Below are positions 14,675 to 20,530 of a stretch of DNA of 64,000 nucleotides, one piece after another. The notes under the pieces were generated by a model. It was not told the DNA's origin. It ran no database searches and saw only the letters and a list, made by a program, of their open reading frames with translations. The position numbers and the translations under genes were made by a program. Location: positions 15,900 through 79,899 of the IMG/VR virus record IMGVR_UViG_3300046690_000339; one strand, written 5' to 3'. Source of the stretch: a virus. The number at the start of each line of letters is the position of its first letter. Position 1 is the stretch's first letter.

Positions 14675-15877
14675 CTATTGCTCAAATTGCATCGCTGCGC
14701 CGTCCTCAAACTCGATCACGTTGCCGTCTTGGAATAGCATCTCGAAGGCGCCGAAATCGGCGGCGCCCGACGGATTGATGATCGCGTGCCCAGGATAGCC
14801 GCGCCCGACTTCGGCGCTGATTTGGTAAATGTTGATATGTAAGTTGGTGCCCTTTAGCCCACCGAAATCGGTTGTCTGATCCGCATCGTTATACGTGAAG
14901 GCTTCGGTCGTCGAGGTCAGCGTGCGAAGCACTGCGCTTTCATCATCCTCCAAGATATCCAGTTCGTAACTTTCCGCCGTCTCGGCAAGAGGCGGATCGT
15001 AAAAGTCCCGACCGTTGCGTCCTTGTAAACGGCTGCGCCGCTTGAAAGTAATCTGGACGTCATCCCCGATATCGGCCAAGCCACGAATGTCCACTGGAGC
15101 CCATGGCTTCAACGATATGCCGGTGTCGGTAAACGTGGTCGCTTGCGCACCGGTTATGTCCATGCCAGACGATACGGCTTTGAATTGCCGCGGCTGGCTA
15201 ATCACGGCCAGCGCATCGTTGATGCGGAAGGTAATCGCCTGGCGTAAAAGAATCGCCCGCTCATTCAGCAAGTGCGTTGCCATCGCCCACTCGGTTCCCT
15301 TATAGCCGCGCACCATGGGACCGTCCAAGCTCCAGCGCGTCGCCGATAGCTGGCTGACATTCTGAGACAGCACGATTTCATCGCCGATCAAGTAAGCCAC
15401 TTCGCCTTTCAGCATCTCTTCCAATGACATGCTTTCCAGCGTGCCGCCGATCAATTCGATCTCAAGCGTGTTGGCATAATCCAGCGTATTGATTTCGCCG
15501 GCCGGCAGCACTTCCTTGGCGAAACCGATCGGCGACGCTTGATCAACCGTTTTCACCTGCTGAAAATCCGCGGTATCATCGTCACTTTGCCAGAGGCTCG
15601 CCGCGCCCCAGGTCGCCAACGCGCCGCGCATGGCGACATAAAAGCCCGCGCCATCATCGGCATCGCGCAGCGTCGGGATATCCATTAAGCGCAGGATCGT
15701 CGAGCCCGGAACATTGACCGTCTGGTTCGGGAAGTTCGCCCGGACCGCTGTGACCGGATCGCCGAGCGCCTGACTGAAATAAATGGCGGGATCTTCCCGG
15801 TAGATTTTTACCGTGATCAATCCCTCGGCGGCCAGCGTCGCCTCGGCAATTCTTGCGGTGATATCTCGGGTTGCCAT
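14675..15877 (-). CDS. Tail tip (RcGTA gp15/megatron-like) protein, C-terminal part
   Basis: MDIPTLRDADD...GFYVA...W, EIV...A...W...RGYKGTE and PLAETAESYELDI motifs; begins mid-domain. Confidence 0.8.
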   Translation of the reverse strand: MATRDITARIAEATLAAEGLITVKIYREDPAIYFSQALGDPVTAVRANFPNQTVNVPGSTILRLMDIPTLRDADDGAGFYVAMRGALATWGAASLWQSDDDTADFQQVKTVDQASPIGFAKEVLPAGEINTLDYANTLEIELIGGTLESMSLEEMLKGEVAYLIGDEIVLSQNVSQLSATRWSLDGPMVRGYKGTEWAMATHLLNERAILLRQAITFRINDALAVISQPRQFKAVSSGMDITGAQATTFTDTGISLKPWAPVDIRGLADIGDDVQITFKRRSRLQGRNGRDFYDPPLAETAESYELDILEDDESAVLRTLTSTTEAFTYNDADQTTDFGGLKGTNLHINIYQISAEVGRGYPGHAIINPSGAADFGAFEMLFQDGNVIEFEDGAAMQFEQ

Positions 15878-18226
15878 TTAAGCCATTGCCCCTAACAGCG
15901 GCGCATCGTCATAACAACGCCGATTTCCCAGCTCACAATACTTCCGCTCCAAGTCCATCCCGATGCCGCGCCGGTTCATCTTGTCAGCGACTAGCGCCGT
16001 CGTCCCTGAACCGCTGAACGGGTCAAGAATGATCGCGCCGGGCTTCGATACCAGCTTGATGAGATACTCGATCAGGTCTTGAGGCTTGACGGTCGGATGA
16101 TTGTTGCCCTCGCCACGGTCGGCCTTGTCGGCCTTGGCGGTATAGTGAAATCTATTTGCTGAGTCCGCTTCCCCACGAACCGTATTGAATAGCGTGATGT
16201 TGAATGTGGCAGGCTCTACAGACCCATTTGATTTCCAGCGGCTTATTGTAATCGTCGTGATGTCGGTCCGCCTTTGGGTTGCCGCAATTTTCACAAGGCA
16301 ACCGTTCGGGAAAGGCTTTTCTTGCTGCAGCTCGGGCGAGACATTTTTTTCTAAACTCAGAATTGCTGTGATAAGCGACTCGCAAAGTTTTCTTAACTCT
16401 CTCGGCGTTGCGCTCATAAAATGGTGCGTTGAATCGCTTAATCCAAGTCGTCCTTGGCTGGCCAAAATTGCTGCATGACTTAGAGCAGAAGCGACGTGAT
16501 CGCTTGACAGGAAAGAAAGGTCGTCGGCAGTATTCGCAAGGTCTTGATTCCATGCTATTATTATAGCCTTGGCGTTGCAAAAAAGCGACTCAATTTCATT
16601 CAAAGAAACAGTTTTAAAAAACCGTGACGCGCCGCCGGTGTCGCCATACCAGTCAATCGGGTCTGCCCCTCTACTCTCTGCACCATAAACATTGCCTTGA
16701 TGACCAGACGTTGTTTTGGCGCGACTAACTGTTTTACCGCTGGTCAATTCCCCGCTCTGCTCATCGAGCAGCGCCGCCGCTTCTTCGTCGAGGATTAGGT
16801 TGGCGGGCCAACGACCGACGTTGCTGTGATGATTCGCTTTTGTCGGATCGTAGTTATCGCCAAGGCCGGTTTGAGACGGTCGCCCATTCGCGCCGCATTT
16901 ATAATCGCCATCGAGGTTGATTCGACACCCGTCGATATTCAGCGCCCCGGTACCGTATCGCTGCACGTTTTCGGCTACAGTGCCGATGATCGGCTTGCGG
17001 GCGACGATGATCGGCTGGAACTTAGGCCGTAATCCCAGCCCTATTTCTTCCGGGTGTAAGCGCTGCGCCTCGTCGATAGCATCGCCTAGAACAGAAAGCT
17101 CTTGGATGGCGTTGATGCTCGTGACGACGGCGTTCAAATATCTTGCCGCAGGCAAGGCATTTAACTGTAACCCAGGCGCTTGCAACTCTGCCTTTATGAT
17201 GATGCTTGGAGTGAGCGCCGATAAGCATAACTTCAAGATTTTTAGGTCGATTGTCGGATTTGTTTTCGATTCCCTCTCGCTTGTGGTGGACGTGCTCATT
17301 TCGTCGAAGTGGGCGACCAAGGCGCTGCGCCATGACGACACGATGCTCAAGCTCGTATTTATCGCCGACACGCACAGCGACGTATCCGTCTTTGCGCGTA
17401 AATCGTCCCAAATATTCTTTGGCTGCTCGACATCCCATCGAGCAAAAGCGAGCGCCGCGTCGTGCTCTGCTTGGCTTAACTTGAAATGTTGTTCCGCAAT
17501 TCTCGCAGGTAATATCGACCATAGTTGCGCCTCCAATTTCAATAGGTTCGCAACTATTATACTCCGTTCCGTTGATTCTGGAAATGGTTTTTGTGCTACT
17601 ATGATATTTTCCCATGCGGGTTTAAGCGCCGTGCCCCAGCCTTGCCACTCTTTTGCGGCGTCGGTAGATGGTGCAGTGAGTTTTTCTATTCCATAACCAA
17701 AGATAGCAGTATTGTTTCGATTAGCTTCAGCTGCGGCCATCGTGACGCCGTTTCGTTTTGCCGCCTGAACATCTCCCCTAACTTTTTCTCCAACAATCTC
17801 CCGCTCCGCTCCTGCCGCCTTATCAATCGCCTTACTCACGTCCAACGATTTCGGAAATCCGCTGCCGTAGAGCCACATGATGCAATCACGAATCTCAAAG
17901 CCTGCGTCCTCGATTGCGCAGGTCAGCCGGTGAAACGTCCGCGTGCCGCCGAAGGCGAGCAGGTAAGCGCCGGGCTTGAGCACGCGGAGGGCTTCGAGCC
18001 AGTATTCAACTCCCGGCACAACGGCGTCCCATTTTTGGCCCATGAATCCGCCGCCAGTTGTTACACGCGAGCGACCTGCAGGAGATTTCAGATTCAACGA
18101 AGCCGCGCCGCTTCCGCCTTTTTTGTTTTGAGTAAGTCCGTAAGGCGGATCGGTGATGATGGCGTCCACCGAATTATCCTTCAGCGGTACTTGTCTTGCG
18201 TCGGCGTTGAGAATTTTCCAGCTCAT
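15878..18226 (-). CDS. Beta-class N6A/N4C DNA methyltransferase with two in-frame insertions
   Basis: TDPPY, WLYGSGFPKS, GWGTALKPAWE, GRWPAN, HPTVKP and DPFSGSGTT motifs. Confidence 0.9.
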   Translation of the reverse strand: MSWKILNADARQVPLKDNSVDAIITDPPYGLTQNKKGGSGAASLNLKSPAGRSRVTTGGGFMGQKWDAVVPGVEYWLEALRVLKPGAYLLAFGGTRTFHRLTCAIEDAGFEIRDCIMWLYGSGFPKSLDVSKAIDKAAGAEREIVGEKVRGDVQAAKRNGVTMAAAEANRNNTAIFGYGIEKLTAPSTDAAKEWQGWGTALKPAWENIIVAQKPFPESTERSIIVANLLKLEAQLWSILPARIAEQHFKLSQAEHDAALAFARWDVEQPKNIWDDLRAKTDTSLCVSAINTSLSIVSSWRSALVAHFDEMSTSTTSERESKTNPTIDLKILKLCLSALTPSIIIKAELQAPGLQLNALPAARYLNAVVTSINAIQELSVLGDAIDEAQRLHPEEIGLGLRPKFQPIIVARKPIIGTVAENVQRYGTGALNIDGCRINLDGDYKCGANGRPSQTGLGDNYDPTKANHHSNVGRWPANLILDEEAAALLDEQSGELTSGKTVSRAKTTSGHQGNVYGAESRGADPIDWYGDTGGASRFFKTVSLNEIESLFCNAKAIIIAWNQDLANTADDLSFLSSDHVASALSHAAILASQGRLGLSDSTHHFMSATPRELRKLCESLITAILSLEKNVSPELQQEKPFPNGCLVKIAATQRRTDITTITISRWKSNGSVEPATFNITLFNTVRGEADSANRFHYTAKADKADRGEGNNHPTVKPQDLIEYLIKLVSKPGAIILDPFSGSGTTALVADKMNRRGIGMDLERKYCELGNRRCYDDAPLLGAMA
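16152..16553 (-). CDS. Nested HNH-like endonuclease inside MTase insertion 2 (alternative frame)
   Basis: PCEYC...FCSKSC and CENCG...HHDDYNKPLEIKWVCRACH; TATAAT 6 nt upstream of ATG 16553. Confidence 0.8.
   Translation of the reverse strand: MESRPCEYCRRPFFPVKRSRRFCSKSCSNFGQPRTTWIKRFNAPFYERNAERVKKTLRVAYHSNSEFRKKCLARAAARKAFPERLPCENCGNPKADRHHDDYNKPLEIKWVCRACHIQHHAIQYGSWGSGLSK
17022..17522 (-). CDS. Nested HNH endonuclease inside MTase insertion 1 (alternative frame)
   Basis: EHRVVMAQRLGRPL...VHH...DNRPKNLEV with flanking zinc ribbons; GGAGG SD at 17530-17534 before ATG 17522. Confidence 0.85.
   Translation of the reverse strand: MVDITCENCGTTFQVKPSRARRGARFCSMGCRAAKEYLGRFTRKDGYVAVRVGDKYELEHRVVMAQRLGRPLRRNEHVHHKREGIENKSDNRPKNLEVMLIGAHSKHHHKGRVASAWVTVKCLACGKIFERRRHEHQRHPRAFCSRRCYRRGAALTPGRNRAGITA
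17521..17584 (-). promoter_or_regulatory. Internal sigma70-like promoter plus SD-occluding hairpin for the nested HNH
   Basis: TTTCCA-17-TATAAT (-10 at 17556-17561); 9-bp stem ATAGTTGCG/CGCAACTAT at 17521-17557. Confidence 0.7.
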
Positions 18227-20530
18227 TTAAGCCGCTACCCTCAAGTTCACCGGATCAGCCGCATCCAGCGCCACATATTTTCTAGGCAGCATCAGCACGC
18301 GCGGATCGCGTTCGAGCCAGTGCGTCGCGCTTAAAACCTCGGCAATCTGTTTCGCCTTGGTCGATGTCATCACAATAGCAAGATCTACCGTAACCACGTT
18401 TTTCGATTCGCTGTTTAATCGACCTGACGAAACAACGTGACCGGTTTGATAGCTCGCATCCTGATCTTTAAACCGTACGTGGACAATGACAGGGAGTTCG
18501 CTTTCCTGCGAGCGCGTGATTTCCTGCACCGGCGGAAGAGCGGCGTTCAAGTCGAGCCGCGCCGCACAATCCCCCTGCAGTATCGTCGCCACGGCATTAT
18601 GTCCGCGCTTGCGGAAGTAAAGCATGTTGTCGCTTTCCGGCCCGTCATAGTAGGCATAGCGCTGGAGCGGTAGCGTGGCGTCGCGGCCTGTCATCTGCTG
18701 ATCGAGGGTGAAGCCGCGCACGCAATCGGTAAGCTCGGTGACGTTGAATTCGTTTTCTTCCATACCGCAAGCGATGCAGATATCACGCTGGATTTTCCAC
18801 AGCGGACAGCACAGACCCTCGGCACCCGGTGCCCAGGCATGAACGGTGAAGTCATAAAATCCCCAAGTGCCAAAATTCCCGGTGTACCAAATTCCATTTC
18901 GGACAAAGAGCGTACCGTCGAGGCCCGAGTTGACATGAGGAGTCGCCGATTGACCAAGAAAAGTTATTTCGCCATCGTTCCAATCCCAAAAGAGCGCCGA
19001 GCCGAAAGTCTGTCCGGTATTGCCAAAAAGTCTTATTCGGGTATCGCTCTCGACGAAAAAATTTCGGACTTTATTCGTGCCAAGATCGTAACTTTGCACA
19101 AGCGACATATCTTCGGGGTCGAACTTATAAAGCATCGCGTGCGCGAGAATATTTCCGAATGCGTCAAAATTGACTCCGCGCAAGGCCCACAAAAAGTCAT
19201 CGCCCATATTGATGCTGCTAAGACCGCCATGATCCGTCCAAAAGCTGTCGGCGATCTTACCGATCAATGCACCGCCATCCGCGTTGAATCGCTCGATCAG
19301 TGAAAATTTTCCTCCTGTCGGGACCCGACGCATCAAATAAAGATCGGTTCCCTTCTTCGCAAAGAAATCATAAGGCGGCTGCGGCGGCCCGATTGTTGTG
19401 ATAATTTTTCCTGCACGCACGAGCCAAGCTTTGCCGTCACTCGCGAAGAGCGCAGCCGGTTCGTCGCTGACTCCAGTCGCCATCACGCCGCCCAATTCGC
19501 TTGGGCTCGAATTGTCTGTAAAGACTGCCGGCGGTCGTTCTTCTTCGATGTATGATCCATCCGATAGCAGGCGAAACGCGCGAATGAAATACTCGCCTGC
19601 ATTGGGGCCGCTCGGAATGATGTCGGTATAGACTTGGCTCCCATGACCGACCATCATCAGAATTTCGCCGTTAGGATCGACATAGGACCAACTGCCGAAG
19701 CTACCGCTTGCGCCGCCCTCATCGGTCATCTGCCAGTAGCCTTTTTCCTGATAATTTTCATCGCCGTCCGTGTAGCACTCAAAAGAAAGATTCGGGATAG
19801 TCCCGTACTCCGTCGTCTCGAAATCTTGAAAGACGGCCAAGAATTGATTTCTATACGCCGTGGTATTACCGACGCCCTCGAAGGCTTCGATTAGCGCGGG
19901 CGGCAGCTGTTCTTCGTTGCCATCATAAAAAGTAACCGAGCCGGCGTTTCTGCCTTCGAGATTCTGCCCGGTGCCAATTAGGCTTTGCAGACTGGCATCC
20001 ATGCTGTGATCATAAATTAATTTTGGCCCGGCCCAGATTCGGATCACGCCACGGCAGTTCGACGCGCCATTTATCGCCACGGCAAAGTCGGCAAAGTACG
20101 TAAACGTTTCACCCGACGACCCACCTTTGCCCTTACCGCCGACGGTGTGCTTAAATGTGCGAATGCCACGACCGCCATGGCCGTCCGAGCCGATCCAGAT
20201 CAAATTTCCTGCCATGCGATCGACGCCCCAGAATCGTTTGATCGGCGAGCCGAATGCGGCCGATTGAATGTGTGCGTCTTTCAGGCGCGGTCCGGTTACG
20301 CTTTGGTTTGCGCCTTGGAATATTGAAAACAGAGTTGAACTTATTGACCACGCCAGTTGCGCACTGGTGAGAATCGAGCTTACCGACCACGTTGCGGCGG
20401 CGGCAGTAGCGCCGGCCGCAACCTCGGCAGCAACCGCGCTCGCCGCCGCCACTCCGGTCGTCGCAGCTGCGCCGCCAGCGCCAATCTCGGCGGCGGAGCC
20501 GACTGCCGCCATTATTGTAACAAAACTCAT
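18227..20530 (-). CDS. Tail tip (gp15/megatron-like, Phage-tail_3) protein, N-terminal part
   Basis: FGSPIKRFWG...GNLIW, YFADFAVAI, RIWAGPKLIY, AYR and ELPVIVHVRFKD motifs; ends at LDAADPVNLRVAA. Confidence 0.85.
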   Translation of the reverse strand: MSFVTIMAAVGSAAEIGAGGAAATTGVAAASAVAAEVAAGATAAAATWSVSSILTSAQLAWSISSTLFSIFQGANQSVTGPRLKDAHIQSAAFGSPIKRFWGVDRMAGNLIWIGSDGHGGRGIRTFKHTVGGKGKGGSSGETFTYFADFAVAINGASNCRGVIRIWAGPKLIYDHSMDASLQSLIGTGQNLEGRNAGSVTFYDGNEEQLPPALIEAFEGVGNTTAYRNQFLAVFQDFETTEYGTIPNLSFECYTDGDENYQEKGYWQMTDEGGASGSFGSWSYVDPNGEILMMVGHGSQVYTDIIPSGPNAGEYFIRAFRLLSDGSYIEEERPPAVFTDNSSPSELGGVMATGVSDEPAALFASDGKAWLVRAGKIITTIGPPQPPYDFFAKKGTDLYLMRRVPTGGKFSLIERFNADGGALIGKIADSFWTDHGGLSSINMGDDFLWALRGVNFDAFGNILAHAMLYKFDPEDMSLVQSYDLGTNKVRNFFVESDTRIRLFGNTGQTFGSALFWDWNDGEITFLGQSATPHVNSGLDGTLFVRNGIWYTGNFGTWGFYDFTVHAWAPGAEGLCCPLWKIQRDICIACGMEENEFNVTELTDCVRGFTLDQQMTGRDATLPLQRYAYYDGPESDNMLYFRKRGHNAVATILQGDCAARLDLNAALPPVQEITRSQESELPVIVHVRFKDQDASYQTGHVVSSGRLNSESKNVVTVDLAIVMTSTKAKQIAEVLSATHWLERDPRVLMLPRKYVALDAADPVNLRVAA

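Follow-up and report, generated by a model that had tools for sequence, protein, structure and literature searches.

The methylase gene and its two insertions

The DNA analysed here, a stretch of 64,000 nucleotides referred to below as the window, comes from the IMG/VR virus record IMGVR_UViG_3300046690_000339 (positions 15,900 to 79,899 of that record) and carries a gene for a DNA methyltransferase. This 782-residue open reading frame (ORF) at 15878-18226 matches the N6_N4 methylase profile PF01555 with an E value of 6.8e-31. When the protein is aligned with 59 IMG/VR and metagenomic methylases and with the short homologues of Mycobacterium phage Nala and Gordonia phage Clown, two long in-frame insertions stand out relative to uninvaded homologues. 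Each insertion encloses, in the -1 frame, a second ORF for a predicted HNH-type nuclease, here called HNH-1 in insertion 1 and HNH-2 in insertion 2. It is insertion 2, together with HNH-2, that is the main subject of this work. The features of the locus are as follows.

15878..18226, minus strand: host gene, a beta-class N6/N4 DNA methyltransferase of 782 residues, with DPPY, HPTVKP and DPFSGSGTT intact
17015..17617, minus strand: insertion 1, of the ShiLan type discussed below, in frame between GTALKP and FQPIIVARKP (from the alignment)
17022..17522, minus strand: HNH-1, nested in the -1 frame, likely ATG at 17522 (50% identity to the hidden HNH of Starcevich)
16616..16645, minus strand: flank motif copy 1, GDTGGASRFF, a well-conserved methylase motif directly 5' of insertion 2
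16145..16615, minus strand: insertion 2, 157 codons, stop-free in the methylase frame (from the alignment with uninvaded homologues)
16560..16565, minus strand: TATAAT, 6 nt before the HNH-2 ATG, a candidate -10 element that reads Ile-Ile in the methylase frame
16152..16553, minus strand: HNH-2, nested gene in the -1 frame, ATG to TAG, 133 residues, a putative nuclease by its match to phrog_2340, its model and its motifs
16145..16174, minus strand: flank motif copy 2, GEADSANRFH, the final 10 codons of insertion 2, degenerate
16130..16144, minus strand: YTAKA, where the methylase motif resumes (from the alignment)

Insertion 2 comprises exactly 157 codons (471 nt, residues 538-694 of the methylase) between GDTGGASRFF and YTAKA, and has a guanine plus cytosine (GC) content of 0.46, versus 0.54 for the remaining methylase gene. 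An earlier note on this DNA, made from the sequence alone, had described a methylase motif duplicated 471 nt (157 codons) apart with the methylase frame staying open, and the alignment gives the same length and zero stops. The note had placed the insertion at 16151-16624, bounds that are a few bases off those found here. The HNH-like ORF that it had read in the alternative frame (HHDDYNKPL...WVCRACH), ending at the second copy of the motif, is the ORF at 16152-16553, and its claim that one methylase holds two unrelated nucleases agrees with the comparison of HNH-2 and HNH-1, which share no similarity except an N-terminal zinc ribbon.

Scans with the nested protein located full-length relatives of HNH-2, with 46-67% identity, at four metagenomic or viral loci (L007, L087, L088, and L089). 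At all four, a methylase of the same family encloses the nuclease ORF at the identical RFF|Y site, the offset between the two frames is unchanged, and no stop interrupts the methylase frame; together with the window, these loci provide five DNA copies of the insert. When 5.8 billion proteins were searched with the insert as read in the methylase frame, six further methylases emerged that share its in-frame peptide at the RFF|Y site and that, judging from this peptide, probably also contain the hidden ORF. Other relatives of HNH-2, including one at L008 (42% identity) and many more, are ordinary free-standing genes adjoining unrelated genes.

The idea of the earlier note that the arrangement represents a class of element rather than an accident is borne out, given that both insertion types recur in other phage methylases; insertion 2 is not unique to this contig, and its nuclease frame is conserved at the four other loci. 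A brief survey that covered 63 related methylases from IMG/VR gave hidden HNH genes at no fewer than four sites, one of them inside an intein.

The duplicated motif at the edges of insertion 2 is asymmetric. Copy 2 overlaps the C-terminus of HNH-2 (WGSGLSK) and its stop codon, which falls inside the N-R codons of this copy, and in the members of the family the nuclease stop lies within or just ahead of copy 2. Directly before the Y, R-hydrophobic-x is found in 11/11 members, matching the RFFY of uninvaded methylases. SA(A/S)RFF is retained in full by the 5' copy. At L089 the residues R-V-F are located past the nuclease stop, which indicates retention for the sake of the methylase rather than the nuclease. 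The flank repeat may provide each half of the split motif with a substitute for its lost neighbour. The AlphaFold2 model of the 782-residue methylase is uninformative on which copy folds, with a predicted local distance difference test (pLDDT) score below 50 over both RFF copies and the whole of residues 441-537.

The nested nuclease and the frame that it shares

The HNH-2 ORF, which carries HHDDYNKPLEIKWVCRACH and ends with a TAG at 16154-16152, takes up 133 of the 157 codons of insertion 2; an alternative TTG start at 16580 would give a protein of 142 residues. Its motifs are an N-terminal CxxC...FCS..C zinc ribbon and, in the C-terminal part, CxxC, HHDDYNKP, and CxxCH. The protein matches PHROG 2340 (phrog_2340, "endonuclease") at 8.6e-10, and its C-terminal third matches endonucleases annotated in phage genomes, some of which are labelled PacI-like. 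Among HNH-2 and 18 relatives, 11 columns are invariant (C87, H98, H99, D100, D101, Y102, N103, K104, P105, C112, and H116), and the copy in the window has all of these residues. The AlphaFold2 model of HNH-2, with a mean pLDDT of 82, predicts strands at 95-99 and 108-112 and a helix at 113-124 over HHDD...CxxCH, which suggests the beta-beta-alpha arrangement of His-Me finger nucleases. By sequence and by profile, PDB yielded nothing useful for HNH-2 beyond a weak FCS zinc-finger match. By motifs and model, HNH-2 has good but not complete support as an HNH-type nuclease.

Chance does not explain the open methylase frame, because in each of 14 free-standing relatives the equivalent frame contains between 4 and 13 stops (5.2 per 100 codons), versus none in the five nested copies. 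A stop arises in the methylase frame wherever a nuclease codon xTA or xTG precedes a purine, and these codons make up 22 of the 117 xTN codons in nested genes versus 211 of 415 in free-standing ones (Fisher p = 2.5e-10). When the nested proteins were recoded with the codon usage of the host gene, the probability of obtaining an open frame was 0.004-0.044 for four of the five. Synonymous shuffles that retain the codon usage of the element itself gave approximately 0.25 for each copy, a null that is too lenient because this codon usage is itself adapted.

The two readings of the insert differ in how they vary between copies. The nuclease frame has codon position 3 as the most variable in all 10 pairs, with the order position 3 > position 1 > position 2 in 7/10, and an amino acid identity of 44-63%; the methylase reading of the same DNA has position 2 as the most variable and an identity of 24-46%. 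This pattern means that selection acts on the nuclease and that the methylase reading is merely kept stop-free; on this comparison of codons, the insert as read by the methylase is a passenger. The part of the methylase gene that lies 3' of insertion 2 retains HPT.KP and DPFxGSG in 5/5 copies, with position 3 the most variable, which is the pattern of purifying selection. Given that the C-terminal part of the insertion-bearing methylases is under purifying selection, translation must cross the insert and give a working C-terminal part. This selection also rules out that the methylase is a pseudogene.

The start of HNH-2 is preceded by a perfect TATAAT at 16565-16560, 6 nt ahead of the ATG at 16553, as the earlier note had pointed out. 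A sigma-70 scan called no full promoter at this start, and a -35 element is absent. The geometry makes a leaderless HNH-2 transcript possible in the window, but not across the family as a whole. An ATG-GAA start is common to the window, L007, and L087. At the equivalent position L007 has TATATT-N6-ATG, together with a second ATG that is preceded by a strong Shine-Dalgarno sequence; L087 and L089 have AGGA at Shine-Dalgarno distance, and L088 has GAGGG directly abutting the ATG. There is no start signal common to all five copies.

This lack of a common start signal is one of two points that would fit the window copy being an inactive relic, that is, a nuclease that once homed and is now dead, in an insert that persists because it is harmless; the other is that decay after fixation is common for homing endonuclease genes. 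We regard this explanation as unlikely, given that the ORF is intact with 11/11 of the residues invariant in the family and that the substitution pattern across the copies is that of purifying selection on the nuclease frame.

Whether insertion 2 is removed from the RNA or from the protein was evaluated from its sequence. Rfam, at permissive thresholds, gave no match in positions 15000-19000 of the window or in L007, L087, L088, and L089. RNAalifold applied to the five insert copies (579 columns) gave -30.6 kcal/mol with a covariation term of -0.04, and thus no conserved RNA structure, and the P3-P9 core of a group I intron ribozyme was detected neither by covariance model nor by covariation. 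The first residue of the insert is K, A, or F (Q in one database protein), the last is H, K, R, or F, and the next residue is Y. These junctions, which are without Cys, Ser, or Thr nucleophiles, rule out known intein chemistry; real inteins, in contrast to insertion 2, are present in Lilac, Starcevich, and L200. A programmed -1 frameshift at TTTTTTAAAA after RFF was also rejected, given that the heptamer is out of phase and that the nuclease frame in the window has a stop separating this heptamer from the ATG.

These data argue against removal of insertion 2, while leaving room for an unknown mechanism. Such a mechanism could be cryptic self-splicing by an intron of a type not yet described, or an unorthodox excision at the protein level, with an open frame that is incidental or otherwise used. 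The flank repeat does recall the similarity between intron 5' end and 3' exon discussed by Arsenault et al., but other observations speak against removal: the window and the four related loci are devoid of Rfam matches and of conserved RNA structure, the nucleophiles of inteins are absent, and merely ~26-98 nt per insert lie outside the open stretch of the nuclease frame, which is too little room for a ribozyme core. Moreover, a frame kept stop-free by the choice of codons in five diverged copies would be pointless if the insert were spliced. We therefore consider removal improbable.

Distribution of the insert and the case for homing

The GC content of the insert is below that of the host gene in 5/5 copies. 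A maximum-likelihood tree built from 60 methylase cores scatters the five insert-bearing genes over three places, the site being empty in the other 55 genes; the distribution requires three changes, and a single change is obtained in 0/200 bootstrap trees. In the nuclease tree the copy of the window pairs with that of L007 (support 82/87), unlike the tree of the host genes, where the two methylases, just 44.5% identical, are far apart. The RFF|Y site ranks 7 in nucleotide conservation among the non-overlapping 8-codon windows of the methylase family, and the other insertion sites observed here, GWGTALKP, WLYGSGFP, and DVSKAIDK, are also in the top 12 stretches, as is HPT.KP, which flanks one further site. 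Homing nucleases typically target highly conserved stretches.

This distribution bears directly on the possibility that HNH-2 is a functional partner of the methylase, in a compact restriction-modification-like or addiction pair that would cut unprotected DNA, for example that of competing phages. Such a pairing is suggested by the several unrelated HNH families that associate with this methylase family, by the fusion of an HHDDYNKP-family nuclease in frame inside a C5 methylase at L076, by the separate HNH gene that ShiLan-bearing mycobacteriophages have directly upstream of the methylase, and by the annotation of some HNH-2 relatives as PacI-like restriction enzymes. However, the insert is present in only 5/60 of the sampled methylases, at three places of the tree. 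It invariably occupies a single conserved site in the DNA, has a lower GC content, and is accompanied by a flank repeat. Furthermore, a single methylase holds two different nucleases, and the free-standing relatives have unrelated genes as neighbours. A partnership of this kind thus seems to us a poor candidate.

The explanation that we favour, and consider probable, is that insertion 2 is a selfish element of homing type, of the 'hidden out-of-frame HNH' kind, which is most likely unspliced and whose nuclease would be made separately. By this explanation, a His-Me/HNH gene of the free-standing type sits at the codons for GGASRFF|Y.AKA, among the most conserved DNA stretches of the methylase, and its codons in the -1 frame would have been chosen so that the methylase frame passes without stops. 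There would most likely be no splicing, and the methylase would be a single chain of 782 residues in which the off-frame reading of the nuclease forms an extra, poorly conserved loop. The short copy of the split motif at the 3' junction (A-S/N-R-F-x) would rebuild RFxY.AKA. The nuclease, presumably produced from its own internal start (the conserved ATG-GAA), would cleave insert-free methylase alleles, into which the cassette would then be copied during repair by recombination.

Several observations weigh against this explanation. The assignment of HNH-2 as a nuclease draws on motifs, one PHROG hit, and the secondary structure of a model. Pfam gave no match for HNH-2 of the window and only single weak hits to HNH and HNH_5 among its relatives, the best Foldseek match (the HNH of Cas5-HNH) is weak at E 0.3, and VIA-align gave Z values up to 3.8, also weak, with 2.5-3.1 for the HNH domains of GVE2, ZRANB3, T4 endonuclease VII, and Hpy99I. 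The AlphaFold2 model of the methylase has low confidence over both insertions and the region between them, and it is thus a prediction that the methylase tolerates the insert as a loop. The incongruence between the nuclease and methylase trees has moderate support. Finally, an empty-site allele in a close relative was looked for and not found, the closest methylase in IMG/VR being 55% identical, and homing is therefore proposed from the distribution of the insert alone.

Relation to known elements and other hidden nucleases

Gosselin et al. 2023 (PMC9957025) reported for this methylase family an intein, an in-frame LAGLIDADG domain, and an unexplained "ShiLan domain". Arsenault, Gosselin and Gogarten 2025 (PMC11855218) then showed that an out-of-frame HNH gene is hidden in the ShiLan domain, which has no features of introns or inteins and repeats 11 flanking residues; they described one further case, Pacc40 gp60. 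Their report is based mainly on one nuclease family in actinophages and states that such elements are more widespread, with which the survey of 63 methylases agrees. An element at the RFF|Y site is not described in either paper.

Insertion 1 belongs to the ShiLan domain proper, as defined by a homologous HNH and the ALKP|AxEP site. HNH-1 and the HNH hidden in the ShiLan domain of Mycobacterium phage Starcevich share 50% identity (E 9e-46), and this type of insertion recurs in mycobacteriophages and a cyanophage, being present and unannotated in Pollywog and in cyanophage Cr-LKS3. Its flank repeat is larger (ALKPAWENIIVAQKP versus GLRPKFQPIIVARKP), and its relatives in other phages likewise have such a repeat. 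In the AlphaFold2 model the well-conserved halves of this repeat, GWGTALK and FQPIIVARKP, are in the confident core, and the degenerate halves are in the low-confidence insert. A promoter-like site (TTTCCA, 17 nt, TATAAT, with 10/12 matches) is found inside insertion 1 at 17556-17584 on the minus strand, upstream of the start of HNH-1.

Insertion 2 falls outside the ShiLan domain proper, although the likeness is extensive. The two share the methylase family, a host frame free of stops, a nuclease in the third (-1) frame that fills nearly the whole insert and has its stop at the very end, a short repeat of flanking residues, the absence of an intron or intein signature, and a patchy distribution (PMC11855218). 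They differ in the nuclease, which in insertion 2 is of a family with an HHDDYNKP core and similarity limited to the zinc ribbon, in the site (RFF|Y versus ALKP|AxEP), and in length (157 versus ~200 codons). They also differ in origin, since insertion 2 comes from environmental contigs and from a phage with a tail gene like those of Caulobacter and Rhodobacter phages, and has a non-actinophage host. The element class is therefore already published (2025), and what is new in insertion 2 is the nuclease family, the site, and the non-actinophage host; the evidence for selection on the openness of the frame is also new.

Other known systems share single aspects of this arrangement. The helicase-methylase Pacc40 gp60 of the 2025 paper has a second, independent out-of-frame HNH-like ORF in a stop-free insert of a phage methylase, but its nuclease is unrelated to HNH-2 (E 0.92), and the methylase family and the site are others. 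Inteins with out-of-frame or antisense homing endonucleases, of which out-of-frame cases were reported in bioRxiv 10.1101/2025.01.02.630785, likewise have the nuclease in another frame of an in-frame insert, and L200 is an example here; they carry splicing blocks and are excised from the protein, whereas insertion 2 is without splicing blocks. Phage homing endonucleases that are borne by group I introns or are free-standing (I-HmuI, I-TevIII, and T4 mobE; PMC2790892) share an HNH-type nuclease at a highly conserved coding site and a sporadic distribution. In the case of group I introns, however, RNA splicing restores the host gene and stops in the host frame are usual, while the host frame of insertion 2 reads through; free-standing homing genes sit between genes or split them, while insertion 2 leaves the host frame readable.

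The usual view is that a homing nuclease gene can reside harmlessly in a coding sequence only within an intron or an intein; the 2025 report on the ShiLan domain pointed to a third arrangement. A second nuclease family, unrelated to the first, is now seen with this architecture in environmental phages; it occupies a different conserved site, and in the window it shares its gene with a ShiLan-type insert. Together with the evidence on stops, codon choice, and selection, this argues that the class is general. It also provides a simple rule for finding hidden genes missed by gene callers, which is to look at conserved motifs for long in-frame inserts that contain an open off-frame ORF and are accompanied by a flank repeat. 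A more tentative proposal, which we hold to be possible though doubtful, is that these cassettes offer homing nucleases, in addition to introns and inteins, a third general means of residing in an essential coding sequence, in which the gene is never spliced, is recoded to be stop-free, has the interrupted motif rebuilt by a repeat, and is tolerated as a loop. The two cassettes of the window bracket the region between the ALKP..ARKP and RFFY motifs, which is presumed to be the target-recognition part; if the proposal is correct, homing with co-conversion could move this part between methylases and swap their specificity.

Further hidden nucleases were observed among related loci. L200 (1417-3666) encodes a methylase of the same family with an intein at the WLYG|S site, whose centre hides an out-of-frame HNH (nested open frame 1796-2695) of a type that is also nested in L007 and L197. 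These latter two hidden HNH ORFs (L007:2986-3513 and L197:2153-2911) lie around the GFPKS motif and are in the +1 frame rather than the -1 frame, and the flank repeat of L197 is IGWAHQK versus LAWKYGTGFPKS. At L238 (544-1002), a hidden HNH is found between ERN.GLEG and HPT.KP of the same methylase family. The 848-residue protein P0005 has insertion 2 and a further insertion of ~230 residues at a conserved motif, flanked by the repeat SLDVSKSIDGAERK and ILKHKAIDKAAGAQR.

Nucleases are also joined to methylases in other ways. The HHDDYNKP-family nuclease at L076 (3422-4873) is fused between FSGIGG and GGFP of the C5 cytosine methylase, and the frame breaks after the fusion, ahead of an ORF carrying the ENV motif. 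The annotated free-standing HNH genes directly upstream of the hidden-HNH methylases of mycobacteriophages (L001:1079-1435, L002:1079-1435, and L258:4743-5105) overlap the methylase start by 4 nt.

The methylase gene of the window is itself nested, in its entirety, within a host-specificity (tail) gene of the gene transfer agent type at 14675-20530. The two halves of this gene, an N-terminal part of 767 residues (18227-20530) and a C-terminal part of 400 residues (14675-15877), both abut the methylase, and GGCTTAAATG is present at both methylase/tail junctions (15875-15884 and 18224-18233). The homologue in Caulobacter phage BL47 is one coding sequence of 1196 residues, the C-terminus of which is matched by the C-terminal part.

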